A stretch of 64,000 nucleotides of DNA from an uncultured Actinomycetota bacterium (GCA_963711655.1 CAVQEW010000001.1:53176-117175), one strand, 5' to 3'; counted from the first letter of the stretch, positions 25,186 through 56,806 are shown. Program-made: numbers and translations. Notes: generated by a model from the letters alone, not told the origin.

Positions 25186-27030
25186 ATGACCGAGCTCCGC
25201 GTCGTGGCCACGGCCGGCCACGTCGACCACGGCAAGTCCTCCCTGATCGTGCGCCTCACCGGGATGGATCCGGACCGTTGGGAGGAGGAGAAGAGGCGCG
25301 GCCTGACGATCGATCTCGGATACGCCTGGTGCGAGCTCCCGTCCGGGCGCGAGGTCGGCTTCGTGGACGTGCCCGGACACGAGCGGTTCGTCGCGAACAT
25401 GCTGGCCGGCGTCGGGCCCGTCCGCCTGGTCCTGTTCGTGGTTGCCGCCAACGAGGGCTGGCGTCGGCAGTCCGAGGAACACCTCGCGATCCTGGACGTC
25501 CTCGGGATCGAGGGAGGGGTCATCGCCCTCACGAAGCGAGACCTCGTCGACGACGCCGCCCTCGCGCGGGTCGAGGAGGAGGTCCACGAGCGCGTCGACG
25601 GCACGGTCCTCGGCGGTGCCGAGATGATCCACGTCTCGGCGACGACCGGGCAGGGTCTCGACGACCTCCGGACGGCGCTCGATCGCATGCTGGCGGTCGC
25701 GCCGGCTCCCGAGGAGACGCGGACCCGGTTGTTCGTCGATCGCGTGTTCACGATCTCGGGGGCGGGCACGGTGGTCACCGGCACCCTGGGCGGTGGGGAG
25801 CTCGCGGTCGGAGACGAGGTGGAGCTCTACCCGCACGCGAGGAACGCCCGCGTCCGATCGCTCCAGACCCACGAACGGAACGAGGTCCGTGTGGCCCCGG
25901 TCGCGCGGGTCGCGGCCAACCTCGTGGGGACGGGGAAGGAGGACCTCGCCCGTGGCGACGTCCTGGGTGCCCCGGCGGCGTGGAGGCCGACCACCACGTT
26001 CGAGGGCATCCTCCGGCCGGTCCGCGGCCTGGCCCACCCGATCACCGGGCGTGGCGCCTTCAAGGTCTACGCCGGCGCCTCGGAGGCGGACGCGACCATC
26101 CGTCTCCTCGAGGGCGCGTCCCTCGAGGCGGGCGGAGAGGCCTACGTCCGGATCACGACCGCGCGGCCGCTCGTGTTGGACGTCTTCGACCGGTTCGTCC
26201 TGCGGGAATCCGGACGACAGGAAACGGTCGGCGGCGGCTCGGTGCTGGATCCGGCGCCACCCCGGCGCGCGGGACGCTCCCCGGAGTCACGCCTCGCCCG
26301 GCGCGCCTCGGCGGCGCGGGACGAGCTCCCCGCGATCCTCGCGGAGGAGCGCGAGGCCGTGCAGGCGTCGGAGGCACTCCTCCTCACGGGCTCGAGCGCC
26401 GGGATCCCTCAGGCGGCGGGATGGCTCTTCCGGCAGGGCTTGCTCCAGGAGATCGGTCCCGCGCTCGTCCATCACGTCCAGGCGTTCCACGAGGATCATC
26501 CTCTCGAGGAAGGGGTGCCTCTCGCCTCCGCTCGCCGGGTGCTCGCCGATCTCGTCCGCCCGGCGAACGGCAGGCTCGACCCCAGGTCGATCGACCCGAT
26601 GCTCGATCGCCTCGTCGCCGACGGCTTGCTCGTACGCACGAGCACCTCGATCGCGTTGCCCTCGCGCGCGCCGGCCGAACAGGGGGGCAACCCACTCGTG
26701 CAGCAGGTGACGGAGGCGATCTCGTCCGAGCCCGCGCAGCCGCCGACCATCAAGGAGCTCGTGGCGCAGGGGATCGGGCGCGACGCGATCGACGCGGCGA
26801 TCCGAGCGGGACTCGTCGTCCGCGTCGCGCCCGACCTGGTGTTCCTCCCGGAGTTGATCGACCGGGCGCGCGAGATCGTCGCGAGTGCGAGCGGTTCCGG
26901 GATCACGGTGAGTGCGTTCCGCGAGGCCCTCGGGACCAGCAGGAAGTACGCGGTACCGCTGTTGGAATGGTTCGATCAGCGGGGCATCACGCGGCGAGAC
27001 GGCGACCTGCGATTCCCGCGCTCGTCGTAG
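25186..27030 (+). CDS. selB: Selenocysteine-specific translation elongation factor
   Basis: 614 aa, intact. G-domain motifs AGHVDHGKS, DVPGHERF and TKRDL. The long C-terminal winged-helix region is typical of SelB. The ATG directly follows the selA TAG. Confidence 0.9.
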   Translation: MTELRVVATAGHVDHGKSSLIVRLTGMDPDRWEEEKRRGLTIDLGYAWCELPSGREVGFVDVPGHERFVANMLAGVGPVRLVLFVVAANEGWRRQSEEHLAILDVLGIEGGVIALTKRDLVDDAALARVEEEVHERVDGTVLGGAEMIHVSATTGQGLDDLRTALDRMLAVAPAPEETRTRLFVDRVFTISGAGTVVTGTLGGGELAVGDEVELYPHARNARVRSLQTHERNEVRVAPVARVAANLVGTGKEDLARGDVLGAPAAWRPTTTFEGILRPVRGLAHPITGRGAFKVYAGASEADATIRLLEGASLEAGGEAYVRITTARPLVLDVFDRFVLRESGRQETVGGGSVLDPAPPRRAGRSPESRLARRASAARDELPAILAEEREAVQASEALLLTGSSAGIPQAAGWLFRQGLLQEIGPALVHHVQAFHEDHPLEEGVPLASARRVLADLVRPANGRLDPRSIDPMLDRLVADGLLVRTSTSIALPSRAPAEQGGNPLVQQVTEAISSEPAQPPTIKELVAQGIGRDAIDAAIRAGLVVRVAPDLVFLPELIDRAREIVASASGSGITVSAFREALGTSRKYAVPLLEWFDQRGITRRDGDLRFPRSS

Positions 27031-31799: not shown

Positions 31800-32258
31800 C
31801 TAGCTCGCGCGCAGCCGGGCCCGGACCTTCTCCTGCACGACCTTCCCGTCGACACGACCTTTGGCCCTCCCCATCAGGAAGCCCATCACCGCGCCGAACT
31901 CCTTCTCGGAGGTGGCGCCGGTCGCCGCGAAGGCCTCGTCGAGCAGGGCGTCGAGCTCGTCGTCGGTCATCGGTTCGGGTGCGTACGACGCGATCGCCTC
32001 CCGCTCGGCTCGCTCCTTCTCCGCGAGCTCGCGGCGACCGGCGCCCTCGAACGCCTCGATCGACTCCGCCCGTTTCTTCACTTCCTTCGCCGCGACGTCG
32101 CGGACCTCGTCGTCGGAGAGCTCGTGGCGGAGCTCCTTCTCTTGGTTCGTCACGGCCGCGGACAGCATCCGGAGCGCGCCCAGACGGACCTTCTCGCCGG
32201 CGCGGAGGGCGTCGGTGATCTCGACGGCGAGCCGCGCTCTCAGGGTCGGGTCGCTCAT
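31800..32258 (-). CDS. GatB/YqeY domain-containing protein
   Basis: MSDPTLRARLAVEITDALRAGEKVRLGALRMLSAAVTNQEKE...FGAVMGFLMGRAKGRVDGK. ATG at 32258. Confidence 0.75.
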   Translation of the reverse strand: MSDPTLRARLAVEITDALRAGEKVRLGALRMLSAAVTNQEKELRHELSDDEVRDVAAKEVKKRAESIEAFEGAGRRELAEKERAEREAIASYAPEPMTDDELDALLDEAFAATGATSEKEFGAVMGFLMGRAKGRVDGKVVQEKVRARLRAS

Positions 32259-32270
32259 TACACTCCCCCC

Positions 32271-33152
32271 GTGCTTCCCGTGGTCGCGACGATCGCCGTG
32301 CTCGGCATCGGATGCGTGCTCTACGGGATCTTCATCGAACGGTTCCGATACCGGGTCCTCCGGCATCGGCTCGACATCCTACCGGCGGGGGTCGAGCGGT
32401 CCCTCACCGTGCTCCATCTCTCCGACCTCCATTTCGTCCGTCACGACCCGAGGAAGACCCGATTCCTCGCCGGCCTCCCCACGCCCGACGTCACGGTGGT
32501 CACCGGCGACTTCCTCGCAGAGCCGGAGGCGATCGACACGGCGGTGACGAGCGTCCGGCCGGTCCGGGGTCGGCTCGGATCCTGGTTCGTCCTGGGGTCC
32601 AACGACTACTTCGTCCCGAAGCCGTTGAACTATCTGGCCTATTTCCAGAAGGGGCGGAGGGGGCGTCGGGCCCGCCGGGGACGCGCGCCGGAGCTGATCG
32701 AAGCCCTCGTCGCGGACGGGTGGGCGGACCTCACCAATTCTCGGCGGACCGTGTCACTCGACGGGCTCGAGACCGAGCTGCTCGGTCTGGACGACGCCCA
32801 CATCCGTCGCCACGATCTCCGGGGCGCTCCTCGGAGCAACGGGGACGGCTTCGGATTCGCCGTCATGCATTCACCCGACTCGGCCCCGGAAGCGGCCGCG
32901 CTCGGCTACGGCCTGATCGTCGCCGGACATACCCACGGAGGCCAGGTGCGATTGCCGTGGATCGGCGCGCTGGTGACGAACTGCTCGATGCCCTCGAGGC
33001 TGGCGTCGGGGTTGATCCGGATGGGATCGGCGATGCTCCACACATCGCGGGGGCTCGGGACCAGCAAATACGCCCCGTTCCGGTTCTGGTGCAGGCCGGA
33101 GGCGACCTTCCTGGAACTTCGGCCTCGGACCCACGAACGAGGGTCCGGATGA
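32271..33152 (+). CDS. Membrane-anchored metallophosphoesterase
   Basis: N-terminal TM helix, then LHLSDLH, TGDF, GSNDY and GHTHGG motifs. GTG at 32271. Confidence 0.75.
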   Translation: MLPVVATIAVLGIGCVLYGIFIERFRYRVLRHRLDILPAGVERSLTVLHLSDLHFVRHDPRKTRFLAGLPTPDVTVVTGDFLAEPEAIDTAVTSVRPVRGRLGSWFVLGSNDYFVPKPLNYLAYFQKGRRGRRARRGRAPELIEALVADGWADLTNSRRTVSLDGLETELLGLDDAHIRRHDLRGAPRSNGDGFGFAVMHSPDSAPEAAALGYGLIVAGHTHGGQVRLPWIGALVTNCSMPSRLASGLIRMGSAMLHTSRGLGTSKYAPFRFWCRPEATFLELRPRTHERGSG

Positions 33153-33207
33153 AGCCACCGGCCTCACCGGGTGTGCTCGGATGGACGACCCGCTAAACTG
33201 CACCGCA

Positions 33208-33281
33208 CGGGACGTGGCGCAGCTTGGTAGCGCGCAGCGTTCGGGACGCTGAGGTCGCGGGTTCAAGTCCCGCCGTCCCGA
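33208..33281 (+). tRNA. tRNA-Pro (anticodon CGG)
   Basis: Hand-folded cloverleaf. Acceptor CGGGACG/CGTCCCG; D arm GCGC-AGCTTGGTA-GCGC; anticodon arm CAGCG-TTCGGGA-CGCTG; variable loop AGGTC; T arm GCGGG-TTCAAGT-CCCGC; discriminator A. 74 nt, CCA not encoded. Confidence 0.9.
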
Positions 33282-33291
33282 CACCGAAGAG

Positions 33292-33325
33292 ATGGGGCGG
33301 GCCGACACCACGGCCCGCCCCATTT
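33292..33325 (+). terminator. Perfect 13-bp hairpin after tRNA-Pro (ATGGGGCGGGCCG-acacca-CGGCCCGCCCCAT) followed by TTT
   Basis: Read directly. It starts 10 nt after the tRNA 3' end. Confidence 0.65.
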
Positions 33326-33427
33326 CACGATGGGGCAACAGGGGTTTGACGACCCCCGGGTGCCCCGGTAGCCTCGGGCAACGGCTCCGGCGACGGAGCC
33401 TTTCGTGCTACTCGGACCAAGGAGCTC

Positions 33428-34505
33428 ATGACAGGGACGCGAACGCGGATCACACGGCTCCTCGTAGCCGTGGTCTTTGCGCTCCCCGTCCTCCTCTCCG
33501 CGCTCAGCCTCTCTTCCCTCGCAGCGCCATCCGAGGAGGAGGTCCAGGCGGCGAAGGACAAGCTCGCCGGACTCGAGCACGACTTCGAGGTCCTCGCCGA
33601 GCAGTACAACGACGCCAAGTATCGCCTCGCCTTGATCGAACGGAAGCTCGCCGAAGCGCGCGACCAGAGCGAGGCAGCCGAACGCGACGCGCAGACGGCG
33701 GAAGGCCGACTGGCCAAGCGGGCCGTCCAGGCCTACGTCGGGACCGGCTCCCAGGTCGACGGTCTCCTCGGAGCCGAGAACATCGCGGAGTTCTCCGACC
33801 GCCTCGAGTTCATGGGCGCGGTCGCCGAGGCGGACGCGGAGATCGCCCGCGCAGCTTCGAACGCTCGGCAGGAGGCCGATTGGGCGGCGGATCGGTTCGC
33901 CGACGCGCGCATCGAGCGACAGCGCGAGGTGGCGGCCATCGAGAGCCACCTCGATCGTCTCGACTCGATGATCGACGAGCAGGCGTCCCTCTACGAGCAG
34001 CTCCACCAGGACCGCGCCGACTACCTCGCCGTCCTCGCGGCGCAGCGTGCCGCGCTCGAGCAGGCCCGCCAGGAAGCGGCACAGGACACGCCGCCCGCCG
34101 ACACGACGTCGGACACCGGGGGCTACGTCCCGCCGGTCAACGGATGGCCGCGGGGACCGCGGTCGCAGCGGCGAGGAGCGTCGAAGGCACCCAGTACGTC
34201 TTCGGATCCGCCGACCCGAACGTCGGCTTCGACTGCTCCGGCCTCACCTCGTGGGCCTGGGCGCAGGCGGGCGTGTACATCCCGCACTCTTCCGCCGCGC
34301 AGTACTCCTCGCTCCCGCACGTGCCGCTCGGGAGCGTGCAGCCGGGCGACCTGATCTTCTACTACTCGCCCGATCAGCCACGTGGCGCTCTACGTCGGCG
34401 GCGGGCAGATCATCCACGCGACCCACCCGGGTGCCGATGGCGCGGTCCACTACGGACTCGATGTACGGCTACGATCCGCCGGTCGGCGCCGCTCGCCCGG
34501 GCTAG
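33428..34505 (+). pseudogene. RipA-like secreted NlpC/P60 peptidoglycan endopeptidase (coiled-coil N-terminus); 3 frame breaks (near 34140, 34375, 34453)
   Basis: Signal sequence plus coiled coil in ORF 33428..34354. The catalytic Cys context GTQYVFGSADPNVGFDCSGLTSWAWAQAG is in the frame of 33292..34986. ISHVALYVGGGQIIHATHPG is in a third frame. The C-terminus DSMYGYDPPVGAARPG is in the frame of 34047..34505. Confidence 0.75.
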
Positions 34506-34545
34506 CCTCCGGCTCCCTCGCATCCCGCCGCTAGGCTCCTCGCTC

Positions 34546-35194
34546 GTGACCGCCCCGGCTCCTTCCGGCGACGACCTCGCTCTGGTGGAACGGCTCCGCG
34601 CCGGAGACGAGTCGGCGTTCATGTCGCTGGTCGATCGCCTGCAACCCTCGATGCTCCGGGTCGCTCGCATGTACGTCTCGACGGCGGCCGTCGCCGAGGA
34701 GGTCGTCCAGGAGACGTGGCTCGGCGTCCTGCGCGGCCTCGACAGCTTCCAGGGGCGGTCGTCCACTGCGCACCTGGATCTTCCGGATCCTCACCAACAT
34801 CGCGAAGACCCGTGGACAGCGCGAGGGCAGGAGCCTGCCGTTCGCCTCGCTCGCCGGCGACGACCTCGACGCGCCCGCCATCGATCCCGGTCGTTTCGAC
34901 ACCTCCGAGGCCTCGTCCCGCGGGGCCTGGTCGACGCTGCCCGACGACTGGACCGGGATCCCGGAGGATCGGCTCCTCGGCCGTGAGACCCTCGCGGTCA
35001 TCGGCAGGGCGATCGAAGGGCTCCCTCCGATGCAGGCCGAGGTGATCCGGTTGCGAGACGCCCTGGGCTGGACGTCGGAGGAGGTCCGTAACGCGCTCGA
35101 CCTGACCGAGACCAATCAGCGGGTGCTCCTGCATCGCGCGCGCGCGAAGGTGCGGAGCGCGCTGGAGGCCTATCTCGCGAGCGAGGCGACGTGA
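34546..35194 (+). CDS. ECF-type RNA polymerase sigma factor; one frame break at about 34765
   Basis: Region 2 reads LVERLRAGDESAFMSLVDRLQPSMLRVARMYV...ETWLGVLRGLDSFQGRSS, then (after removing one A) LRTWIFRILTNIA. Region 4 reads LPPMQAEVIRLRDALGWTSEEVRNALDLTETNQRVLLHRARAKVR. GTG at 34546. Confidence 0.8.
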
Positions 35195-35445
35195 TGGGAC
35201 GCGAACTGACCTGCAAGGAGCTGGTGGAGCTGGTCACCGCCTACCTCGACGGCAGCCTTCGCGGACGGCGGCGGCGCCGGTTCGAGTCGCACCTGGCCTC
35301 GTGCGACGGATGCACGCGGTACGTGCGGCAGATGGCGGCCACGATCCGCGCGACGGGCACCCTCACCGAGGAACAGGTGACCGACGAACAGAAGGCCGTC
35401 CTCCTGACGGCGTTCCGCGGCTGGACGTCCAGCCGGTCGAGCTAG
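35191..35445 (+). CDS. Anti-sigma factor, zf-HC2 type
   Basis: 84 aa. HLASCDGC (HxxxCxxC) motif. The start overlaps the sigma-factor stop (GTGATG). Confidence 0.7.
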   Translation: MMGRELTCKELVELVTAYLDGSLRGRRRRRFESHLASCDGCTRYVRQMAATIRATGTLTEEQVTDEQKAVLLTAFRGWTSSRSS

Positions 35446-35639
35446 GCGAGATCCGCGAGCCGCAGCTCCGCCTGCTGCACGAGCGGCTCGTTCCCGATCT
35501 CGCGCGCGGCATCGCGCGCCTGGGTGAGCAGGTCCTTCGCCTGCTGCGTCCTGGTCCCCGCCTTGTCGGCGGTGGCGTACTTGAGCTTCTCGTCGGCCTT
35601 GACGATCAGCTCGAAGATCTCGTTCGGCTGCATGGGCAT
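35442..35639 (-). CDS. Hypothetical 65-aa helical protein
   Basis: MPMQPNEIFELIVKADEKLKYATADKAGTRTQQAKDLLTQARDAAREIGNEPLVQQAELRLADLA. It starts 8 nt after the reconstructed TrxR stop. It is the tail of track ORF 35442..37187. Confidence 0.4.
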   Translation of the reverse strand: MPMQPNEIFELIVKADEKLKYATADKAGTRTQQAKDLLTQARDAAREIGNEPLVQQAELRLADLA

Positions 35640-35646
35640 CTCGACA

Positions 35647-36881
35647 TCATCCTTCCATCGAGCGGCGGTCGAGCTGGTCGAGGTAGCCGCGGATCTGGAT
35701 CGCCGCGGCCGCGCCCTCCCCCGACCGCCGACGCGAGCTGTTTCGTCGAGCCGTCCCGCACGTCGCCGGCGGCGAAGACACCCGGCATCGAGCTCATGAA
35801 CGTCGGGTCGGTGGCGACGAACCCGCGTTCGTCGAGATCGACGGCCTCCCTTCAGGAAGTCCGGTGTTCGGGTCGAGCCCGATGAACACGAACACGCCCG
35901 CGGGATGGTGCTCCTCGATCTCGCCCGAAACGCAGGTCCTCGATCACGACGGCCCCGAGCTTGCCGGAGCCGTCCTCCTTCTTCCGGAACTCCTTCACGC
36001 CGTGCTGCAGCTCGACCTCCATCCGTGGATGATCCAGGACCTTGGTCTGGAGGATCCGCGACCCGCGGAGCTGATCCCCACGCTCCACGATCGTGACCTT
36101 CCCCGTGAACTGGGTCAGGAAGACGCCCTCCTCGAGACCGGAGTTCCCGCCGCCGATCACCATCAGCTCGTCGGACCCCTTGTAGAAGGGTCCGTCGCAC
36201 GTGGCGCAGAAGTGGATCCCTGCGCCGATCAGGTCGTCCTCCCCGTCGGCGTCCGTGCCGCCGGTACGACGACCCGGTAGCGAGGAGCACCGCCCGAGCG
36301 TGATAGTGATCGCCGGTCGCCGTCTCGACGTCGAGCTCGTCCCGTCGGCAGTCATCCCCGAGTCGGCGGAGATCCTCGTCACGGAGACCGCCTGCAGCAT
36401 CTCCACGCCGTACCGCTCGGCTTGCTTCACGAACCGGTCGGCGAGCTCCGCTCCGCCGATCCCGTCGGGGAAGCCCGGGTAGTTGTCGAGCCGCTCGGTC
36501 ACGCCGGCCTGGCCGCCGAGCCCCTTCGAATCGACGATCAGCGTCTCGAGGTTCTCCCGCGCTGCGTAGATGGCCGTCGTCAGCCCGGTGGGACCGCCGC
36601 CCACGATGATCAGGTCGTAGACGTGCTGCATCGCCTGTCGCTGGAGTCCCAGCTTCTGCGCGAGCTCCTCGTTCGAGGGCTCGGCGAGATGGGAACCGTC
36701 GGGGAACACGATCGTCGGGATGATGTTCTTGCCGTCGTTGCGATCCTGGACAACTCTGAAGCCCCGCCGGCTCGCCCTCGATGTCGTGCCAGGAATAGGG
36801 AACGCGTTGATCGGCCAGGAACTTCTTCGCGCGGCGGCAATCGGGGCACCAGCTCGCGCCGTAGACGAGGATCTCCTCCAT
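35647..36881 (-). pseudogene. Glutaredoxin-like domain fused to thioredoxin-disulfide reductase; at least 5 frame breaks
   Basis: MEEILVYGASWCPDCRRAKKFLADQRVPYSWHDIE (frame of 35442..37187). Then NIIPTIVFPDGSHLAEPSNEELAQKLGL...YDLIIVGGGPTGLTTAIYAAR...IHFCATCDGPFY...MVIGGGNSGLEEG (frame of 35852..36937). Then GVFAAGDVRDGSTKQLASAVG (ORF 35606..35797) and the tail IQIRGYLDQLDRRSMEG. Confidence 0.7.
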
Positions 36882-37047
36882 TGCGTCACCCTCCCGGGTC
36901 GAACGACCGCTCCCTGCTCGGACCGTATCGCGCCCACCTGCGTCCGTTACGCGGCTGTCACGAGGATCCTCCTCGCGGCATCTGGTGAACGATCGGGGAA
37001 CGGGTCCGGAAGGTTCCAGGGAACCCCTGGCCGGCCGGGGGCGTCCG

Positions 37048-37296
37048 ATGGACACTGCGACCGAGGAGGACCCACTGATGACACTTGGCACGGGACCCGG
37101 CGGCTCTGCACATGACGCGATCGTCCGGATCTTCCAGGATCCCTCCGCGGTCTGGACGCTCGACGAGCTCGCACGACGCTTCGGCATGTCGATCGGCGAC
37201 GCGATCCGCGTGATGTCGGACCTCGAGGCGATCGACTTCGTGCGTCGGGTCGGGGACGAATACGTCCCCGGCTACGGGGCCGCGACCGCCTCTTAG
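37048..37296 (+). CDS. Hypothetical small protein, possible winged-helix
   Basis: MDTATEEDPLMTLGTGPGGSAHDAIVRIFQDPSAVWTLDELARRFGMSIGDAIRVMSDLEAIDFVRRVGDEYVPGY. The track ORF starts at GTG 36985. Confidence 0.4.
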   Translation: MDTATEEDPLMTLGTGPGGSAHDAIVRIFQDPSAVWTLDELARRFGMSIGDAIRVMSDLEAIDFVRRVGDEYVPGYGAATAS

Positions 37297-38201
37297 GCCG
37301 CCGCGGCGGTTGCGAGCGCTTCGGCTTCCGCTTCGATCGCCTGGCGATCCGCCAACTTCTCCAGCCAGGCGCTCGGGAGCGCTTCCCGACCGTGATGGGC
37401 ACCGAGCAGCGCGCCCGTCACGGCCGCGTTCGTGTCGGTGTCGCCGCCGAGAGACACGACGTACCGCAGCCCTTCCTCGAAGGCGACACCCTCGGCCGCC
37501 ATCTGCAGCCCGACCCCCGCGGTGAAGAGCGTGAACCCCATGTCGGGCCCGTCGATCGGTCGAGCTCGACCCGCCTCCGCGACGAGGTACTCGAGCTCCT
37601 CACCTCCCTCCCGGTCGAGAACCGCTTCCACCGCTCCCACGACCGCCGCCCGAGGCTCCTGCTCCGCGGATCAGCGCCGCCGTCGGCAGGGTGACCGCCA
37701 GGCAGGCGGTGCGGCAGCGTTGATCCCAGTGCGTGATCGCCGACAAGCGCCGGCGCCTCCTCGAGGAGCAGCTCCGGGCGCGCCGCTCGGAAGGCTCCGA
37801 GCGGCGCGCAGTACATCACGGAGCCGTTCCCGGCCGAGATCTCCGGCCCGCGCTCGGACACGTACCGCTCCGCGGCATCCGAGACGCCGTCTCGGATGCC
37901 GCCGAGCACCCGTCTGCGTGAGGGTCCCGACATCGGGAGGATCCGTGGCCAGCCACTCGAGGTGGCGCCGCAGCACGTCGTCCGTGTCCAACGATCGGCG
38001 CTCGGCGAGCGACCGCCAGAGGTTGCGGGCCATCGCGGTGTCGTCGGTCCACGTTCCCGGGGGGAGACCGGACCAACCCCGCTCGAACGCGGGAAGCGGA
38101 TCGGGGATGTCGGCACGCATGCGGAACTCGAACGGCGCTCCGAGCGCATCCCCGAGCGCCAGCCCGAGGACGACACCCCACCACCCGTTCCCGCAGGTCA
38201 T
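37293..38201 (-). pseudogene. ADP-ribosylglycohydrolase family protein; at least 3 frame breaks
   Basis: N-terminus GLALGDALGAPFEF...GTWTDDTAMA (ORF 37671..38201). Middle part GNGSVMYCAPLGAF (frame of 37418..38176). C-terminus YVVSLGGDTDTNAAVTGALLGAHHG (ORF 37293..37640). Confidence 0.7.
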
Positions 38202-38265
38202 CCACGGGTTCGGAGCCTATCGACGCGACCCGCGACAAGGGCCTCTGGTAGCCTGACTGACCTCG

Positions 38266-38868
38266 ATGGACAAGATCGGACCCAAGCACCGCATGTGCAG
38301 ACGTGTCGGCGCCCCACTGTGCGGGCGCCCCAATTGTCCTGCCAACAAGCGGCCGTACCCGCCGGGCATGCACGGCCGGGGCCGCAAGCGGATCTCCGAG
38401 TACCAGACCCGACTCGTGGAGAAGCAGAAGATGCGGGCGATCTACGCCGTCGGAGAGCGGCAGATGCGCAAGTACTACGAGCGCGCGCACCGGTCGATGG
38501 GAGTCACCGGCGAGGAGCTGCTGAAGCAGCTCGAGACCCGGATCGACGCCGTGATCCTCCGCCTCGGCTTCGCGCTCACGATCCACCAGGCACGCCAGCT
38601 CGTCTCCCACGGTCACGTGTTGATCGACGGCAAGCGGATCGACGTCCCCAGCGCCCAGGTCAAGGCGGGCCAGGAGATCAGCCTCACGGACAAGGCGCGC
38701 GACTTCATCGCCGTGCGGGAAGCGATCCAGATCACCGCGGACCCGCCCGGGTACCTGTACCGGAACAAGGACGAGATCAAGGGCGCCTTCATCCGGATCC
38801 CGGAACGCGATGAGATCCCGCTCCCGGTGACCCTCGAAGAGCGTCTCGTCGTCGAGTTCTACTCCTAG
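38266..38868 (+). CDS. rpsD: 30S ribosomal protein S4
   Basis: 200 aa, intact. S4 N-terminal region and the S4 RNA-binding domain (LETRIDAVILRLGFALTIHQARQLVSHGHVLIDGKRIDVPS). Confidence 0.9.
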   Translation: MDKIGPKHRMCRRVGAPLCGRPNCPANKRPYPPGMHGRGRKRISEYQTRLVEKQKMRAIYAVGERQMRKYYERAHRSMGVTGEELLKQLETRIDAVILRLGFALTIHQARQLVSHGHVLIDGKRIDVPSAQVKAGQEISLTDKARDFIAVREAIQITADPPGYLYRNKDEIKGAFIRIPERDEIPLPVTLEERLVVEFYS

Positions 38869-38874
38869 CCACGC

Positions 38875-39617
38875 ATGGTCGCCTCCGGCGACGTGGACAC
38901 CTTCGATCGAGAGGTCAGGCTCGCCGTGTACCGGAAGGTCGTCGCCGAGAGCCGGCCGCCCTCACGGCGCCGGAGCTCGCCGCCGAGCTCGGCGTGGCGA
39001 CGGTCGGACGTCGAGACCTCCCTCCACCGGCTCGCGGCCGGGCACGTCCTCGTCCTCGCGCCCGGTACGAACTCCATCTGGATGGCGAGCACCGTTCTCC
39101 GCGATCCCGACGCCCGTTCGAGGTGAGCGTCGGCGAGCGCCGGTACTTCGCCAACTGCATCTGGGACGCGCTCGGGGTCGCCGCGTGCCTGCACGCCGAC
39201 GCCCGGATCGACACGCTCGTGCCCCGATTGCTCGGAACCGATGCGTCTCGAGGTCCGCGACGGTGCGCTGGAAGAGACCCGCCGAGGGCGTGGATCCACT
39301 TCGCGGTCCCGGCGGCCCGGTGGTGGGAGGACATCGGCGCGACCTGATCGACGATGCTGCTCTTCCGGTCGGAAGAGCACGTGGAGCGGTGGAACGAACG
39401 GCGAGGAACGCCGGCGGGCGCCACGTTCACCCCGGAACAGGGGTGGCGCCTGGCGAGCGCGTGGTTCCACGATCGCCTGACTCCCGAGTGGCGGAGGAGG
39501 TCACCCGAGGAATCGAAGGCGATCTTCGACGCGATCGGGCTCAGCGGCGCGTTCTGGGACCTCGATCCGGCCGGCGAGGTTTCCTCGACGGGCACGCTGG
39601 ATACATCTGACCCATGA
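38875..39617 (+). CDS. MerB-like (organomercurial/alkylmercury lyase family) protein with in-frame TGA at 39345-39347 (candidate selenocysteine); N-terminal two thirds carry about 6-8 single-base frame breaks
   Basis: Reconstructed sequence: MVASGDVDTFDREVRLAVYRKVVAE..LTAPELAAELGVATV.DVETSLHRLAAGHVLVLAPGTNSIWMA.PFSAIPTP.FEVSVGERRYFANCIWDALGVAACLHADARIDTL.CPDCSEPMRLEVRDGALEET.PAEGV.IHFAVPAARWWEDIGAT-TGA-STMLLFRSEEHVERWNERRG... ORFs 38994..39347 and 39354..39617 share one frame. The ANC/WDA residues and the TGA align with MerB Cys96/Asp99/Cys159 as I remember that sequence. Confidence 0.6.
39358..39379 (+). promoter_or_regulatory. Candidate bacterial SECIS hairpin (9-bp perfect stem, GGUC tetraloop), 10 nt downstream of the in-frame TGA
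   Basis: TGCTCTTCC-GGTC-GGAAGAGCA, read directly. All nine pairs are Watson-Crick. The loop GGUC lies 23-26 nt from the U of UGA. Confidence 0.55.
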
Positions 39618-39751
39618 CGAACAACTTCGTGCACCTCGCTCAGCGCTTCCAGCAGGAAGGCGGCTTCGTGATCGGGAGGGTCGCCCTGGTCGTCCTGATC
39701 CTCGCGATCGTGATGGTGGCCGCGCTCGTCGCGCTGATCGTCCCGAACTAG
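39614..39751 (+). CDS. 45-aa single-TM small protein, hypothetical
   Basis: MTNNFVHLAQRFQQEGGFVIGRVALVVLILAIVMVAALVALIVPN. The ATG overlaps the MerB-like stop (ATGA). It is below the ORF-track cut-off. Confidence 0.4.
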   Translation: MTNNFVHLAQRFQQEGGFVIGRVALVVLILAIVMVAALVALIVPN

Positions 39752-40362
39752 CGCTCGCCCACCGGTTCGAGCGCCGCGCGGACGAACGCGACCACTTCCT
39801 TCTCGCGTCGGCGCAGCGATGCCCGACTCTTGTCGGCTCCGACGACCGCATGGAGGACGCTCGCCTCGGTGAGCGACCCGACGACGGCCGTGTAGAGGGT
39901 GAACAGGAGCATCGCGGGGTCCTGCTTCCGCACCTGACCCTCGTCCATGCCCGACTGGAGGAAGTCGACGGCGCGCCTCCGGAGCGGGTCCAGCACGTCG
40001 GCGAAGCGCTCGAACGCCAGCGGTCCGAGCCGGCCCGCCTCGCGGACGAACATGGGGAACTCGGGCCACTCGGTCGCGAGGCCGAACACCGCGTGGATCA
40101 CGGCCTCGGCTCGGGCCCAGTACCCCTCCTTCCCCTCGAGGGCGTCGGCGATCACCTCGGCCAGCCGGATCCCGGCCGCCTGGAGGCAGGCTTCGAGCAG
40201 GGCGTCCTTACTGGCGAAGTAGTACAGGAGCGTCTGCTTCCGGACGCCGACGGCTCCGGCGATGTCGTCCAGGCTCGCGCCCGCGTAGCCCTCCCGGCCG
40301 AACTGGCGGATCGCCTCCTCGATGAGTGTCGAACGCCGTTCCTCGCCGCCCGTCCTCGGCAC
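39748..40362 (-). CDS. TetR/AcrR-family transcriptional regulator
   Basis: HTH in RSTLIEEAIRQFGREGYAGASLDDIAGAVGVRKQTLLYYFASKDALL. GTG at 40362. It is the last gene of the minus-strand lipid operon. Confidence 0.8.
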   Translation of the reverse strand: MPRTGGEERRSTLIEEAIRQFGREGYAGASLDDIAGAVGVRKQTLLYYFASKDALLEACLQAAGIRLAEVIADALEGKEGYWARAEAVIHAVFGLATEWPEFPMFVREAGRLGPLAFERFADVLDPLRRRAVDFLQSGMDEGQVRKQDPAMLLFTLYTAVVGSLTEASVLHAVVGADKSRASLRRREKEVVAFVRAALEPVGER

Positions 40363-40367
40363 GGCGG

Positions 40368-41288
40368 CTACTCCCAGACCTTCGCCGGGCCCTTGCGCCC
40401 GACCGGACGCGAGCCCTCCCATCGGCGGAGCCAATCGGGCCCGGACGGCCCCACGAGCGATGGGGTTTCGCCGCGCTGAGCCCGTTGGAGCGATTCCCAC
40501 CACGTCGTGCGTTCCTCGTGGAAGAGCTGGGTCACGGCTTGCGTCATCCGCCGGGACAGATCCTGGTGCGACTCTCCTTCGATCGGCCAGAACGGCTCGC
40601 CGTAGCGCACGGTGACGGGTGGTCGCCCCGAGCGCGGCCAGAAACGACCCTTGGGCATCGCTTGGAACGCGCCGACGATCGCGATGGGCGCGAGACCGGC
40701 GCCGGTTTCCAACGCCAGCCGCGCCGCGCCGTGGCGGAAGCGCTGGAGGTGCCCGTCCGCCGAGCGAGTGCCTTCCGGGAACACGACGATGCTCCATCCC
40801 TCGGACAGGAGCTCGCGCGCCTTGTCGACGGCTCCCTTGGCACCGCGCGCGCGATCGATCGGGAAGGCCCCGTAGACGAGCGCGGTGAACGCCTGCCGCC
40901 ACCACACGTCGAAGAAATAGTCGCGCGCGGCGCCGACCGCGGTCTTGGCCTGCCACTCGTCCGGGAGCGTGCACATGATGAGCGTCGCGTCGAGATGGCT
41001 GGAGTGATTCGAGTAGAGGATCAGCGGCGGATCGACGCTCGTGAGGTTGTCGCGTCCGAAGACCCGAAGGGTGAGCTCGTTGCGGACGATCGGCGTCATC
41101 CCTCCTTTCAGGAGCACTTGCCGTACGGCGACGCCCGCGTCGGTCCGCGCCCAGTCGGAAGGGAAGACCCGGTCCGCCTTCGGCTTCGCGTGCTCCTCCG
41201 CCGACCGAGGGACCAGCGGCCGCCGACCCCAGCGGAATCCTTCCGACATGGCCTTGAGCTCGTCCATGGCGTTCCGTACCGACCTCAT
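40368..41288 (-). CDS. Lysophospholipid/1-acylglycerol-3-phosphate acyltransferase (PlsC family)
   Basis: 306 aa, intact. HX4D motif in YSNHSSHLDA, plus FPEGTRSADG and IVGAFQAMP. Confidence 0.8.
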   Translation of the reverse strand: MRSVRNAMDELKAMSEGFRWGRRPLVPRSAEEHAKPKADRVFPSDWARTDAGVAVRQVLLKGGMTPIVRNELTLRVFGRDNLTSVDPPLILYSNHSSHLDATLIMCTLPDEWQAKTAVGAARDYFFDVWWRQAFTALVYGAFPIDRARGAKGAVDKARELLSEGWSIVVFPEGTRSADGHLQRFRHGAARLALETGAGLAPIAIVGAFQAMPKGRFWPRSGRPPVTVRYGEPFWPIEGESHQDLSRRMTQAVTQLFHEERTTWWESLQRAQRGETPSLVGPSGPDWLRRWEGSRPVGRKGPAKVWE

Positions 41289-41298
41289 CTGCGCCCCT

Positions 41299-42888
41299 TC
41301 ACACGACGTCCGCGATCATGATCGGCGGCGCGTGGAAGTAGGTGATCGTCGGCGAGGACCCCACCGTGTCCTTCGCCATCTCGAGCGCGTCGCGGAACGA
41401 ACCCGCGGCGCGGTAGCCGAGGCGCGCGACCGACTTGGGCTCCCCACCGACGAAGATCACGTCGCCGGCGTGATCGCGCCCGTGCGCCCCCCAGTACCAC
41501 ATGTAGAAGGGATGCACGCCGTGATAGGCGTGCGACGTTCGGTACAGGTGCGTGTACCACGGGTCGGTCGCGTAGCGCTCCTCGTACTTGGACTCGATCG
41601 TCGCGGGGTCCGTCGTCTCGGCGAGCACCTCCTCGAAGAAGTCGATGTAGGAGGGGTGATGGATCTGATGGAACTCCCACGGGACCGGGTGGTACAGGAT
41701 CACGACGCCGCCCGGCTTCACCAGCGGCATGTTCCGATACATGTTGAAGAGGTAGCCGAGCCCGAGACAGTGCACGAGGATCGGGTTGAGGATCGAGTTC
41801 ACGTTGTACGGCCCGAGGTACGGCAAGCCGAGCACCAGCACGTCGGATTGACCGCGCACCTCCACCAGCTGCTGGCGGTGGAGGTTCTCGAGGGTCCGCT
41901 CGTGCACGGCCTCGACCTCACCGGCGTTGATACCGGTGAGCTTGTACGGCGCCTCGACCCGGCGGAAGAACTCCCGGCGCACCCGGGGCGGCGCCATCGC
42001 GTTCCCCTTCCGCGCCGCCATCATCAGGCCCTGGTCGTAGGCGGACCACTCCCATTCGCGCTTGTTCAGGAACCCGAGGTTCTTCGGGAAGGTCTCGGCG
42101 TTCACGGTGGTCTCGATCTGGAACACCTTCGGACCCTCGGCGGCGATCAGGCGGCCCATCCTGGTCGCGGAGTCGGCGATCGCGCTGTGTCCCGGCCGCG
42201 TGTCCATGTAGGAACGCGAGTGCATCATCGTCTCGACGTTGTGATGGTGCTTGAGGGAGCGATAGCCGGCCAGACCGATCGCGACCGACTTGTGGCCACC
42301 GTCCATCGCCACGAGGTTCACGTTGACGTAGACGAGCAGGTCCGACTCGGCGGCGCGCTTCGAGATCTCCACGACCTCGTGCTTGTCGGTCGTGCCGATC
42401 TCCGTCAGCTCGTCCTTGTCCTCGCCGTCGAAGTTGTAGAGGTCCTTCGGCCAGAAGGAGCGATAGACGCGCTCGCCCACCATCCGGCGGATCTCGCCCG
42501 CGGTCATCCTGCGGTGGAGCGCGGTCGCGACGACGATCTGGACGTCCTCGACGCCCTTCCGGGCCGCGAGCTCGATCACCTGCTCGAGGATGCGTTGCCG
42601 GATGTCGGGGAGCGTCATCGGCGGCAGGGGGATCGAGATGTCGTCCACGGCGATCGTGAGCTTCATCCCGGCCTTCAGCAGCTCGGGGAGCGGCTCGGAG
42701 TCCCCGAGCGGATGCTGCAGCGCATGACGGATCGCGGCGTTCACGTCGCGGATCCCCGGCAGCGCGTCCGGCGGGTACACCACGCGGGTGCCGAGGGGGA
42801 ACTTCTGCATGCGGAAGCCCTCCCCCTCGTGCACGAGCAGCGGCGGCGTCCGCTCGTCCACCTCCAACACGAAACCGGGTCTGGGCAT
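41299..42888 (-). CDS. LarA-like (lactate racemase N-terminal domain, DUF2088) protein
   Basis: 529 aa, intact. Motifs KLTIAVDDISIPLPP, ATALHRRMT, VNVNLVAMDGGHKSVAIGLAGYRSLKHHHN. The family assignment is from memory of the motif pattern and needs an HMM check. Confidence 0.55.
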   Translation of the reverse strand: MPRPGFVLEVDERTPPLLVHEGEGFRMQKFPLGTRVVYPPDALPGIRDVNAAIRHALQHPLGDSEPLPELLKAGMKLTIAVDDISIPLPPMTLPDIRQRILEQVIELAARKGVEDVQIVVATALHRRMTAGEIRRMVGERVYRSFWPKDLYNFDGEDKDELTEIGTTDKHEVVEISKRAAESDLLVYVNVNLVAMDGGHKSVAIGLAGYRSLKHHHNVETMMHSRSYMDTRPGHSAIADSATRMGRLIAAEGPKVFQIETTVNAETFPKNLGFLNKREWEWSAYDQGLMMAARKGNAMAPPRVRREFFRRVEAPYKLTGINAGEVEAVHERTLENLHRQQLVEVRGQSDVLVLGLPYLGPYNVNSILNPILVHCLGLGYLFNMYRNMPLVKPGGVVILYHPVPWEFHQIHHPSYIDFFEEVLAETTDPATIESKYEERYATDPWYTHLYRTSHAYHGVHPFYMWYWGAHGRDHAGDVIFVGGEPKSVARLGYRAAGSFRDALEMAKDTVGSSPTITYFHAPPIMIADVV

Positions 42889-42914
42889 GGGTCGTCTCCT
42901 GTCTCTTCGTTTTC

Positions 42915-44124
42915 CTAGGCTTGTGGCGCGAACGCCACCTTGAACGTGCCGAGCGTGCCGGCGGTCATCGCATGGTCAAGGGCGTCGCGCCACCGATCCA
43001 GCGGATAGGTCGCTCCCACGAGCTGCTCCAGCATCGGAAGGTTCGAGGCCAGCTCGATCGCCATCTCGAACGTGGGTCTCGTGACCCCTTCCCCGAGGTC
43101 CTCGACCCCCGAGGTGTAGGCGCCGACGAGCTCCAGCTCCCGGAACCAGAGCGGCGTGAGATCGGCGCCGCCGCCGGGGATGCCGGAGACGACGACGCGG
43201 CCTCCCGCCTTCGTGGTCCGCAGGGCGAGGTCGAGCGCGCTGCTCGAACCGGTGCACTCGATCGCCACGTCGACACCACCGAGGAGGAACTCCATCCCGC
43301 GCTCGGGCGTGAGCTTCACGGCGTGGTCGGCCCGGCGCACCGCCTTCACGGCGTGCTCCGGACGCACGACGTCGTCGGCACCCGGCCATCGACGCCGCGG
43401 CGCGCTGGCGCTGGTGCTTCGCCGCCACGATCACGTGGTCGGCCTTCGTGAACGCCTTGATCGCGATCAGCGTCAGGATGCCCACCGTGCCGGCGCCGAC
43501 GATGTGCACGGTTCCTCCCGCCGGGACCCGCGCCCGGAACGCCGCGTGGATCGCGCACGCGAGCGGCTCGATCAACACGGCCGACTCATCGCCCATGTCC
43601 TCGGGTACCGGCCAGAGCTGGGATCGGTGGGCGAGCATCAGCCGGCTCCACCCGCCGCCCGTCTCCTCGCAGTAGCCGGTCTGGAGTCCGGGCTTCAGAT
43701 GGCCGACCGTGACGCGGTCGCAACGACCCACGTGCCCTGCCGCGCAATGCTCGCAGAGCGGGTCCTCTCCCCGCGCAGCGCACCCGAGGACGCTCGAGAG
43801 CACCACCCGCTGGCCGGCCACGAGGTCTCCGCAGTCGTCCTGGAGCTCACCGACGACCTCGTGGCCGGGCACGAACGGGAGCGACACGAGCGGCGAGAAG
43901 TAGAAGGAGGATCGCCCGGAGATCGTGGACAGGTCGCTGCCACAGATCCCGGCGAGCAGCGGCTTCACGCGCGCCCACCCTTCGCGCGTCGGCTCCGGAT
44001 CCTTCTGGGTCACGAGCCGGAGCGGCGCAAGCCCTCCCGTGAGCAGGCCGGGCGCCTTCGATCCGAGCGTCCGCGCGCCCAGGTACTTCGGGGCGGAGCG
44101 ATAGAACTCGAGCGCCAGCGCCAC
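42915..44124 (-). CDS. Zinc-type medium-chain alcohol dehydrogenase; one frame break at about 43380
   Basis: Motifs GICGSDL, VPGHEVVGEL, CEHCAAGHVGRC and IVGAGTVGILT in the frame of 42976..44268. The protein continues in ORF 42915..43367 (ADDVVRPEHAVKAV...VDVAIECTGSSSAL). GTG at 44124, 4 nt after the upstream stop. Confidence 0.75.
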
Positions 44125-44128
44125 GTCC

Positions 44129-46447
44129 CTACCTCCTCGCCGGCTTCGGGAATCGGACGCGCGGCATGCCCTTGGACATGCCCCACTCCTCGATCGGCCA
44201 CCGGCGCCGTCGCGCGTACCGGTACAGGTGCGAGTCGGGCGAGACCGCCACGGGGTTCCCCACGGCACGGAGCAAGGGCAGGTCCGAGTAGGAGTCCGCG
44301 TACGCGTAGGAGCTCTTGAGGTTCACCCCTTCACCCGCCGCGTAGCGGCGGAGCCACGCCGCGCGCGCCTCACCCACGAGCGGAGGCGTCGACATGAACC
44401 CGGTGTAGCGACCCTCGTCGTCGATCTGGAGGTCGGCGCCGATCACGACGTCGAACAGCGGATCCAGAGGACGGAGGAACGCGTTCGCGGCGGCGGTGAG
44501 CAGGAGGGTGCGGTGTCCCGCCGCTCGGTGTTCGCGGATCCGGCGGATCGCGCCGGGACTCGCCTTCTGGAGCATGAACTCCCCCACGTGCCGATCGACG
44601 AGACGCTCCAGGCCCTCGACCGACGCGCCCTCGTAGCGCCGGAAGAACGTGCGCAGGAAGTCCCCTCGATCCCGGCGGTCGATCGCCAGGTACCGCGGGA
44701 TCCGTCCGAAGACCCCCACCAGCTCGCTCGGCCACTCGTCGGCCTCGAGGTCGGCCATCCTCGCCCACACGTAGGACTCGACGACGTTGGAGGAGATGAT
44801 CGTCCCCTCCATGTCGAAGACGGCGAGGACCGGCTCTTCGCGTTCCCGGATCTTGACGTTCGGACGCGCGCGGTCCGTCCGCGACAGCTCGCGGAGCGAT
44901 CGGGTGACGGCCGGCGAGTGGACGTCCTGGAGGTAGTGCTTCCAATCGATCGCCGCCGCGTCGAACGGGAAGCGGGCCTTGTCCTCCTTCGACAGGCTCC
45001 GGTAGAGGGCCATCGCGACGTCATCGGTGTAGATGACCTCGGCCTCCGTGTAGGCGCCGTAGAGATCGGAGTACCGCTTCACGAAGTCCACGCGCGCCTT
45101 GTCGCGATCGACGCGACGGACGGCGTCGCGCATGCCCTTCGACTTGGGCAGGTGGGTCACCACCTGTTCGGCGATGTCGGTCAGCCGCTCGGCCCGGCGG
45201 AGCATCTTCTCGACGGTGACGTTGCCGGGGAACGTCCACTCCGGCACCTTGTGCTCCCCCCGGCCGCGCTCGGGCAACGGGTGCGCCTCGAAGTACTCAC
45301 GGACGAGCGCGTAGAGCTGGTGGAACTGCAGCGGGTTCCGATCGCCGGAGGAGATGTGGTAGTGCGCCGGCTCGCCTGCTGACGGTGGCGTCGCCGCCAC
45401 GGCGAGGATCGCGTTGACCACGAAGTCCACCGGGATGATGTCGACGATGCCCTCCGGGATGCCGGGGAACTCGGGGATCTGCCCCAGCCCGTACGCGCGG
45501 ATGATCGGGTCCGCCATCTTGAAGCCGTCGATCCAGCCCGGAGCGGGATGCAGGAGCGCGGACTCGATGATCGAGGGACGCACGATCGAGAGCGAGAGCT
45601 GCTCGGCCGCCGCGAGCTCCTCCACGGCCCGCTCGCCCATCGCCTTCGTGAACGTGTAGACGTCGGGCCACCCGAGCGATCGAGCGCGTTGGCGTCCGTA
45701 CTCCACGAGCCGCTTCGTCATCCACTCCTTGCGGCGTTGCTCGGCGTCATCCGCCACGGTGGTGGGCCCGGCGCGGGAATGCTCCTTCGACGCATCCTCG
45801 AGGAACCGCTCGAGGAGCTCCGGCTTCCTCGAGGACGCCTCCACGTCACGGCGGGCCTGGAGGGCGAGGTCCGCCTCGAGCCCCCAGTCGACGCGATGAT
45901 CGAGCGTGCGTTCCGGGATCACGCCTTTCTGGACGCCGGCCACGTACGCGGTCGAGACGTGGACGAGCGCGGGACGCGATCCCCCCGCGAGCACCGCGCG
46001 GTAGAGGTTCATCGCGCCGAACAGGTTCGTCTGGAACGCCTCGTCGATCGGCGGATCGAACGAGACCGTCGCGGCGGAATGGATCACGACATCGATGTCC
46101 CCCGGGATGTCCGGCTGACTCCGTGAGAAATCGCCGTCGACGACCTCGATCCGCTCGTCCAGGAGTCGAAGGAGCGCGTCGTCGGAACCGAGGGACTCTC
46201 GGAGGCGGTCGAAGGACGGCTTGCGCGTGAGGTAGTGGACCCGGTCGACGGAGGAGGCTCCGGTCTGGGATCGGACCAGGAGCACGATCGAGGTTTCGGG
46301 GAAGTCGGCGAGGAGGCGCTCGAGGATGACCTGCCCGAGGAAACCGGTCACGCCCGTGAGGAAGATCCGCTTGCCTGCCAGGCGACGCACGATCGAGCCG
46401 CGTGCCTTGGCGGTGCTCCTCCCGCCCTGGGCCTCGTTCTCTACCAT
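44129..46447 (-). CDS. Fatty acyl-CoA/ACP reductase (NAD_binding_4, FAR type) fused to a HAD-IB hydrolase domain
   Basis: 772 aa, intact. Rossmann fold motif IFLTGVTGFLGQV, plus VIHSAATVSF, VSTAYV and YTFTKAMGE (YxxxK). The C-terminal HAD domain has AVFDMEGTII...YADSYSDLPLL. Confidence 0.75.
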   Translation of the reverse strand: MVENEAQGGRSTAKARGSIVRRLAGKRIFLTGVTGFLGQVILERLLADFPETSIVLLVRSQTGASSVDRVHYLTRKPSFDRLRESLGSDDALLRLLDERIEVVDGDFSRSQPDIPGDIDVVIHSAATVSFDPPIDEAFQTNLFGAMNLYRAVLAGGSRPALVHVSTAYVAGVQKGVIPERTLDHRVDWGLEADLALQARRDVEASSRKPELLERFLEDASKEHSRAGPTTVADDAEQRRKEWMTKRLVEYGRQRARSLGWPDVYTFTKAMGERAVEELAAAEQLSLSIVRPSIIESALLHPAPGWIDGFKMADPIIRAYGLGQIPEFPGIPEGIVDIIPVDFVVNAILAVAATPPSAGEPAHYHISSGDRNPLQFHQLYALVREYFEAHPLPERGRGEHKVPEWTFPGNVTVEKMLRRAERLTDIAEQVVTHLPKSKGMRDAVRRVDRDKARVDFVKRYSDLYGAYTEAEVIYTDDVAMALYRSLSKEDKARFPFDAAAIDWKHYLQDVHSPAVTRSLRELSRTDRARPNVKIREREEPVLAVFDMEGTIISSNVVESYVWARMADLEADEWPSELVGVFGRIPRYLAIDRRDRGDFLRTFFRRYEGASVEGLERLVDRHVGEFMLQKASPGAIRRIREHRAAGHRTLLLTAAANAFLRPLDPLFDVVIGADLQIDDEGRYTGFMSTPPLVGEARAAWLRRYAAGEGVNLKSSYAYADSYSDLPLLRAVGNPVAVSPDSHLYRYARRRRWPIEEWGMSKGMPRVRFPKPARR

Positions 46448-56440: not shown

Positions 56441-56543
56441 CTCTCCCCGCTCCTTGGCCGCTCCCTGGCCATCCCTCGGCGTCATACATAGGTGTGACCG
56501 TGCACCCACCGTCGACACCGAGGGACTCGGCCGCTACCCGACG

Positions 56544-56663
56544 ACGGAGCTCCAGCCGGGCTCACCCACGGCACCCGCCGGTTCACGCTTAGGGCTGCTT
56601 CCTTCCGGACCTGACCCGGTTCGCGTTCCGGCGTCGCGTGGGACCCGACCTTCGACGCTCCGT
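56544..56663 (-). ncRNA. ffs: Signal recognition particle RNA (small bacterial type)
   Basis: The minus strand reads ...GGGUCAGGUCCGGAAGGAAGCAGCCC... (plus-strand coordinates 56592-56617), the conserved domain IV motif. Long flanking pairing: ACGGAGC.../...GCUCCGU, GGUCGGG/CCCGGCU, CCCACG/CGUGGG. It has the classic position upstream of dnaX. Ends are approximate. Confidence 0.8.
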
Positions 56664-56806
56664 GCCGGGGCGCTCCGGACCCCCCGGGCCTCGGGCGGGG
56701 ATTCAGCCCCGCTGAAGCGGATCGCGGGTACAGGGCACCGCTAGCTCCCCGCCTAGCACGGTCACACGCGGCGAGTATACGAGGGGCCTCCGACGTGCCC
56801 GACGGC

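Follow-up and report, generated by a model that had tools for sequence, protein, structure and literature searches.

A MerB-like gene with a predicted selenocysteine codon at the catalytic cysteine position in an uncultured Actinomycetota bacterium

Here we describe a gene for a relative of the organomercurial lyase MerB on a 64,000-nt stretch of DNA from an uncultured Actinomycetota bacterium (GCA_963711655.1 CAVQEW010000001.1:53176-117175). We refer to the whole stretch as the window and count positions from its first nucleotide. The gene contains an in-frame TGA which very probably encodes selenocysteine (Sec) at the metal-binding catalytic position of a MerB-like enzyme. Judging from sequence comparison we are confident that the product is a single polypeptide of ~244 residues with the MerB fold, whose third active-site residue would be selenocysteine. 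We hold the combination of Sec decoding, a MerB fold and frame breaks caused by assembly error to be, with the same high confidence, the best joint explanation of the locus. The gene and its parts are as follows, the hairpin being a candidate selenocysteine insertion sequence (SECIS).

38875-39617, + strand: predicted MerB-like selenoprotein gene, 244 codons after removal of 8 private inserted bases
38964-39292, + strand: stretch with 8 inserted nt private to this assembly, from alignments to the orthologous contigs L001/L002, L003 and L159
39156-39158, + strand: codon for Cys93, equivalent to MerB Cys96, in a FANC motif; Cys in 73/73 Sec-form representatives
39165-39167, + strand: codon for Asp96, equivalent to MerB Asp99 (proton donor), in an IWDAL motif; Asp in 72/73 Sec-form representatives
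39345-39347, + strand: UGA read as predicted selenocysteine, residue 155, equivalent to Cys159 of MerB R831b
39358-39379, + strand: candidate bacterial SECIS hairpin, 9-bp stem (7 bp conserved across phyla), within the codons for L-L-F-R-S-E-E-H

Reading frame, fold and active site

The gene starts 6 nt past the stop codon of rpsD and terminates at a TGA at 39615-39617. Between these points the three forward frames jointly spell a MerB-like protein, with several frame changes. The window sequence bears out the original prediction, made from this DNA alone, that open reading frames (ORFs) 38994-39347 and 39354-39617 share one frame and are parted by the TGA at 39345-39347 and two codons. A hand-stitched, frame-corrected translation was compared with the Pfam profile for MerB (PF03243), a check proposed at the outset, and matched with E=3.7e-33 over profile positions 1-125 of 126. 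Intact orthologues on the contigs L001, L002 and L003 each consist of one ORF with one in-frame TGA and the conserved continuation. Moreover, an AlphaFold2 model of a family member with Cys at the TGA column (P0052; predicted local distance difference test 82.4, predicted template modelling score 0.81) retrieved MerB2 and MerB structures in Foldseek at E=3e-11 to 1e-9 with template modelling (TM) scores of 0.6-0.73. These included MerB2 5c17 (E=2.8e-11, TM 0.73 normalised to the target) and MerB 3f2f (E=1.3e-10).

In HMMER alignments the TGA column falls on the Cys of the amino-acid motif GGTC in MerB2 5c17 (E=2.5e-12) and on C159 of MerB 3f2g. Examination of the catalytic triad found the equivalents of Cys96 and Asp99 to be kept, with predicted Sec at the Cys159 position. 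Thus the earlier placement of the TGA on catalytic Cys159, and of the ANC Cys and the WDA Asp on Cys96 and Asp99, holds in both cases. The Asp99-equivalent position is far more variable among Cys forms than among Sec forms. In MerB the metal is held by two soft ligands and the Asp protonates the leaving carbanion. By analogy, the site of the mature enzyme would comprise Cys93, Asp96 and Sec155, corresponding to Cys96, Asp99 and Cys159 of MerB, and we propose for it the protonolysis of a carbon-metal bond, in which the selenolate of Sec155 would serve both as soft metal ligand and as nucleophile. The substrate could be methylmercury or another organometal(loid).

Conservation of the TGA and of the downstream hairpin

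We examined 38 related loci, 34 of them obtained by scanning one genome per GTDB species. All 38 carry TGA at this column, as the original prediction anticipated for orthologues, and in every one the reading frame continues for ~70-90 conserved residues, through a conserved STMLLFRSEEHV..W...WRR...GL.GPFW. By this comparison the TGA is a feature of the family and not a private mutation of the window copy. The record titles of the 34 species-representative loci name about ten phyla. They include Actinomycetota (among them Thermoleophilia, Gaiellaceae and Solirubrobacteraceae), and also Anaerolineae, Chloroflexia, Caldilineaceae, Acidobacteriota, Thermoanaerobaculia, Gemmatimonadales, Archangium, Phycisphaera, KSB1, Desulfobacterales, Armatimonadetes and Eiseniibacteriota. 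Of the 36 aligned loci, 34, the window included, have Thr directly before the Sec column, and the other two (L007 and L009) have Ser.

Protein databases show the same column as a point of truncation. A search of 5.8 billion proteins gave 2684 matches to the family. In 119 of the best 120 clusters at 90% identity only ~51-64% of the query was covered, most entries being 154-157 aa long, which is expected if entries stop near the TGA column. All 13 cluster sequences that were read, out of these 120, end in WW[ED]DIG[AS]T (WWEDIGAT or WWDDIGST), that is, at the residue before the TGA. The sole exception among the 120 is P0052, which reads ...WWDDIGFN-C-ANMLLFRSEDHV... and so has Cys at the column. 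With P0052 as query, an exhaustive HMMER search was made of 1.84 billion cluster representatives, and the best 150 at 50% identity were inspected: 73 break off exactly one residue short of the column, which is occupied by Cys in 60 and by Trp in 2. Cys is therefore found in homologues at the position where the original prediction looked for it. The two with Trp, P0124 and P0152, read ..ATWGTILLFRSEE and ..YTWDTIRFFRSDE, and might be explained if the gene caller applied a code that reads TGA as Trp.

In the databases the C-terminal halves appear as ORFs in their own right, 67-87 aa long. The Cys forms P0052 and P0121 are full-length single ORFs whose nearest relatives are Sec forms, so that the two halves are not separate genes in these relatives; a protein search with P0121 gave 9 matches, the nearest relatives of P0121 being truncated forms. 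Neither of the two large protein searches described above returned a full-length Sec-form entry, and the family is therefore apparently not annotated as a selenoprotein.

Two of the related loci carry a further TGA. In a Desulfobacterales metagenome-assembled genome (MAG; L030:3001-3567, JASJCE010000149.1) a second in-frame TGA occupies the Cys96 column (WWAN*AWDALG), and a stem-loop with a GGU loop begins ~17 nt downstream of it; possibly both metal ligands are Sec in this orthologue, which would make it a double-selenocysteine form. In a Caldilineaceae MAG (L025:3430-3489), 15 codons past the Sec codon, TGA takes the place of the TGG for the conserved Trp in the '..RW' motif, probably through an error or lesion of that assembly.

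The hairpin downstream of the TGA, TGCTCTTCC-GGTC-GGAAGAGCA, is perfect and begins 10 nt after the TGA, as had been described from the sequence. Its apical loop, GGUC at 39367-39370, lies 19 nt after the UGA, at nt 23-26 counted from the U of UGA. On folding, the hairpin alone gave -14.1 kcal/mol and its 61-nt context -24.7 kcal/mol (z = -2.5 vs shuffles). The consensus for bacterial SECIS elements has an apical loop of 3-9 nt with G as its first or second nucleotide, a stem of 4-16 bp, a UGA-to-loop distance of 16-37 nt and a minimum free energy of <= -7.5 kcal/mol (PMC13188914). The window hairpin falls within each of these ranges, with its GGUC loop, 9-bp stem, distance of 19 nt and -14.1 kcal/mol. 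We also compared it with the element of Escherichia coli fdhF, using a sequence found in fdhF with 100% identity in 5419 E. coli genomes. There GGUC, which we take to be the apical loop of the fdhF SECIS, occupies nt 22-25 from the U of UGA, so the geometry agrees to within 1 nt, as the original prediction had it. Both stem-loops lie immediately 3' of the UGA and inside the coding sequence. The fdhF element has a bulged U, whereas the stem in the window family is a perfect helix of 7-9 bp without one.

The hairpin is kept in orthologues, with GGTC at an identical offset in 35/35 independent Sec-form loci and stems of 5-9 bp. Moreover, the codons that form it are frozen. Phe-Arg-Ser is written TTC-CGG-TCG in all 35, against a background in the same genes of 36% CGG among Arg codons and 31% TCG among Ser codons. 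The next Glu is GAA in 23/35 loci vs a background of 24%, and the A of GAA pairs with the U of TTC. As a control, the equally conserved Arg of the ARWW motif uses CGC in 18 loci, CGG in 11 and other codons elsewhere. Cys-form DNA was sought in metagenomes with an IUPAC DNA pattern for WW[ED]DI..TC. The Cys-form homologues that keep F-R-S write Arg-Ser as CGA-TCC, CGC-AGC, CGG-TCC, CGA-TCT and CGC-TCG. Because Cys forms vary these codons, the freezing is specific to the TGA form, and the L-L-F-R-S-E-E codons would be frozen at the nucleotide level because the hairpin is built from them. The DNA of Cys-form P0052 still has the hairpin, and this protein looks like the product of a recent Sec-to-Cys switch.

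These data suggest that the hairpin behaves as a SECIS, a predicted binding element for the selenocysteine-specific elongation factor SelB. At UGA-155, SelB carrying Sec-tRNA(Sec) would bind the GGUC apical loop 19 nt downstream, and selenocysteine would be inserted in place of termination.

A related hairpin occurs on the metagenome contig Ga0209239_1033908 (L050:1623-1649), where the sequence ...ACC TGC TTT TCT TCC GGT CGG AAG AAC has a Sec-type hairpin sequence directly after TGC. About 10 nt between the codon and the hairpin seem to be missing, and it looks as if the gap arose from a deletion or an assembly error.

Selenocysteine machinery, counter-evidence and rival readings

The remaining features that bear on decoding, and the gene next to the MerB-like gene, are these.

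23752-25185, + strand: selA (selenocysteine synthase), intact; Pfam SelA E=3.8e-116, profile positions 1-366 of 367
25186-27030, + strand: selB (selenocysteine-specific elongation factor), intact; Pfam GTP_EFTU, Beta-barrel_SelB, SelB-wing_2 and SelB-wing_3
38266-38868, + strand: rpsD (ribosomal protein S4), directly upstream of the MerB-like gene and co-oriented with it; from the ORF list

An intact selA-selB pair upstream of the gene had been reported from the sequence, and the Pfam matches confirm it at 23752-27030. The two genes abut (25185/25186), and winged-helix domains 2 and 3 of SelB form its SECIS-binding part. We found no other TGA with a hairpin in a coding frame of the window. Candidates at 1802, 4434, 19131, 31436, 34246, 46621 and 50140 lie in non-coding frames or between two genes and were all rejected, in agreement with the earlier statement that the window holds no other obvious Sec client. 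The MerB-like gene is the only detectable client of selA and selB in the window, and the family may therefore help to explain why such lineages keep the Sec machinery. A scan of the window with Rfam at gathering thresholds gave no SECIS match. The structured RNAs that it did return are a bacterial large signal recognition particle RNA (56498-56761, - strand, 167 bits) and a tRNA-Pro (CGG) (33208-33282, + strand). Directly upstream of selA, on the opposite strand, is a gene for a Complex I 49-kDa (NuoD-like) subunit (22480-23670, - strand).

Several results weigh against the joint explanation given at the outset. The tRNA-Sec gene selC was not found in the 64-kb window with ARAGORN or with Rfam at gathering thresholds, and the ORFs scanned, which were not all the genes of the window, yielded no selD. 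Covariation in the 9-bp stem over 36 loci was not significant because the stem hardly varies, and compensatory changes are few (C-G to U-A in L015 and L021; C-G to A-U in L026); the argument at the RNA level therefore rests on the frozen synonymous sites. No neighbouring gene is conserved across phyla, none recurring in more than three related loci within 3 kb. Neither is there a mer operon (merA, merR, transport genes) nearby, and the gene stands alone. Lastly, the 8 insertions, which fall in ~330 nt, are denser here than in the rest of the window.

The density of insertions bears on the alternative that survives best, namely that the window copy is a genuine pseudogene by frameshifts even though its family is a selenoprotein family. 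A frame plot of GC content at third codon positions was too coarse for frameshifts, and direct alignment to orthologous contigs was used. The references were L001/L002 (94.5% identity), L003 and L159, an ENA contig of 1.18 Mb with 98.4% identity to the window over 32077-45616. Extra bases were located at 38964, 38966, 39005, 39088, 39112, 39215, 39276 and 39292. Distributed over 7 sites within 38964-39292, these eight bases do not bring the frame back (8 mod 3 = 2), and they make up the densest indel cluster of the compared region.

Against decay, each of the eight changes inserts a single base and is seen in this assembly alone, and neighbouring genes at 34.1-38.2 kb likewise carry private 1-nt indels. 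L159 has private indels of its own, one in its rpsD call (182 aa vs 200 aa in the window) and another near a fused TetR/acyltransferase call, and the pattern in both fits long-read consensus error. L159 carries the MerB-like gene intact, as 154 aa, TGA and 87 aa. After removal of the eight bases the window ORF is identical to the L159 copy at 242/245 residues, with 15 nt and only 3 residues differing, and the TGA and the hairpin are untouched by the insertions. The original prediction had called the copy either error-ridden or decaying. The frame breaks are indeed real in this assembly, as 8 extra bases, and since a 98.4%-identical contig has the gene intact they are most likely consensus errors of long-read assembly and not decay of the gene. 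We therefore consider a pseudogene unlikely.

Two further readings dispense with selenocysteine altogether. The TGA might be a true stop in a conserved split gene, with a 154-aa MerB N-terminal part followed by a 72-87-aa C-terminal part that starts from an ATG two codons on. Gene callers everywhere annotate two separate parts, and most loci do have an ATG two codons past the TGA. However, in 38/38 loci the stop is TGA and never TAA or TAG, the second part never leaves the frame of the first, and in L011, L016, L023 and L030 the supposed start codon is ATT or ATC (Ile). Moreover, the Cys-form relatives are single ORFs, and a split would take away the catalytic residue of a protein in which Cys96 and Asp99 are invariant. 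It also gives no explanation for the frozen CGG-TCG codons. We regard a split gene as very improbable. A reading of UGA without selenium, through near-cognate insertion of Trp or Cys or an alternative genetic code, is slightly less probable again: the two database representatives with Trp at the column (P0124 and P0152) speak for it, but the same gene ends at a functional TGA stop (39615-39617), the standard-code callers behind the 154-155-aa gene calls treat TGA as stop, selA and selB lie in the window, and the hairpin fits the SelB-binding consensus.

Relation to known systems and gene neighbourhood

If the TGA encodes selenocysteine, as we think very probable, the closest parallel is SaoL, a MerB-like organometallic lyase selenoprotein of anaerobes. 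SaoL has Sec162 aligned to MerB Cys159 in a C-U motif, is encoded in a nine-gene SAO locus and is said to be restricted to anaerobes, chiefly Firmicutes, spirochaetes and deltaproteobacteria (Haft & Gwadz 2022, bioRxiv 10.1101/2022.07.06.499078). SaoL (NCBIfam NF040728) and the window family share PF03243, a UGA-encoded Sec, predicted in the present case, at MerB Cys159, and the retained Cys96 and Asp99, and in both the database entries are routinely truncated at the UGA, with >=50 residues missing. The window family nevertheless scores 49.8 bits against a SaoL cut-off of 140, matching in the N-terminal part only, and its motif is T-U-[A/S] where SaoL has C-U. It is found without the nine-gene SAO locus, the Pfam families of its neighbours showing no ABC transporter/efflux set, and by genome titles it occurs in Actinomycetota, Chloroflexota-type classes, Acidobacteriota, Gemmatimonadota and others. 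Identity with SaoL was therefore rejected on score, on the C-U dipeptide and on the SAO neighbourhood.

With MerB and MerB2 (3F0P, 3F2F, 5C17; NF009710, NF033555) the family shares the fold, consisting of an N-terminal winged-helix-like region and a core, and the placing of the Cys and the Asp; the third ligand is Cys in MerB and, as predicted, Sec in the window family. It differs in lacking Cys160, in a sequence identity of ~20%, and in scores of 52.2 bits vs 193 for NF009710 and 40 vs 200 for NF033555. Moreover, there is no merA, merR, merT or merP near the window gene, which sits in a chromosomal housekeeping context beside rpsD.

The original prediction held that this is not a textbook selenoprotein family. 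Because of SaoL, Sec at the Cys159 position of a MerB fold is already known, and that part of the claim does not stand. The part concerning the window family itself does: two reviews of prokaryotic selenoproteins, one of them a catalogue from May 2026 with 119 families and subfamilies, have SaoL as their only MerB-like entry. A full-text literature search found no other description of the family, with poor coverage of subscription journals, so that an earlier mention is possible. Apparently, then, this is a large and uncatalogued Sec clade of the MerB superfamily. On the comparisons above there is, in our judgement, an even chance that it is a second, independent and unrecognised selenoprotein lineage of that superfamily, widespread in at least ten phyla of uncultured bacteria and in every case with a stand-alone gene, an fdhF-like SECIS frozen at the nucleotide level and a strictly conserved Cys-Asp-Sec site.

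Such a lineage would place a selenolate at the metal position of the MerB fold in organisms and genomic contexts unlike those of the SAO system of anaerobes. If it is true that the family cleaves methylmercury or another organometal, it would represent a selenium-dependent demethylation route outside the mer operon, and surveys that start from annotated merB would miss it, since its database entries all stop at the UGA. In hundreds of entries the protein now appears as two pieces, a 154-aa 'organomercurial lyase' or 'hypothetical protein' without the catalytic residue and an orphan 70-aa ORF. Recognising the Sec codon would correct these entries and add a family beyond the 119 of the 2026 catalogue. 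The question raised, whether bacteria without mer operons cleave carbon-metal bonds in a selenium-dependent manner, is relevant to specialists in both selenoproteomes and mercury cycling.

In close actinobacterial relatives the pairing with rpsD is kept, as judged by Pfam on the gene calls of L001, L002, L003 and L159, and downstream lies either a 45-aa membrane ORF or a TetR regulator with an acyltransferase. In the window the 45-aa hydrophobic ORF is at 39614-39751, its ATG overlapping the terminal TGA of the MerB-like gene (ATGA). It is also called on L159 and, from this overlap, may be a translationally coupled small membrane protein. Clustering of neighbours over 35 loci gave antisense ORF artefacts and one 3-locus cluster only, with no functional hint.

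Upstream, the region 34100-38200 differs from the orthologous contigs by roughly 15-20 single-base indels, of which most are insertions and several occur in the window alone. They fall in genes for NlpC/P60, sigma-70, glutaredoxin-fused disulfide reductase and ADP-ribosylglycohydrolase proteins, the last of which is split into 37293-37640 and 37671-38201. This looks like a stretch of locally poor consensus; rpsD, selA and selB are clean of indels. Lastly, the window (at 35673-36950, ~2 kb upstream of the MerB-like gene) and L001/L002 have a 1.28-kb segment that L159 lacks. It encodes a 409-aa glutaredoxin-fused pyridine-nucleotide disulfide oxidoreductase.

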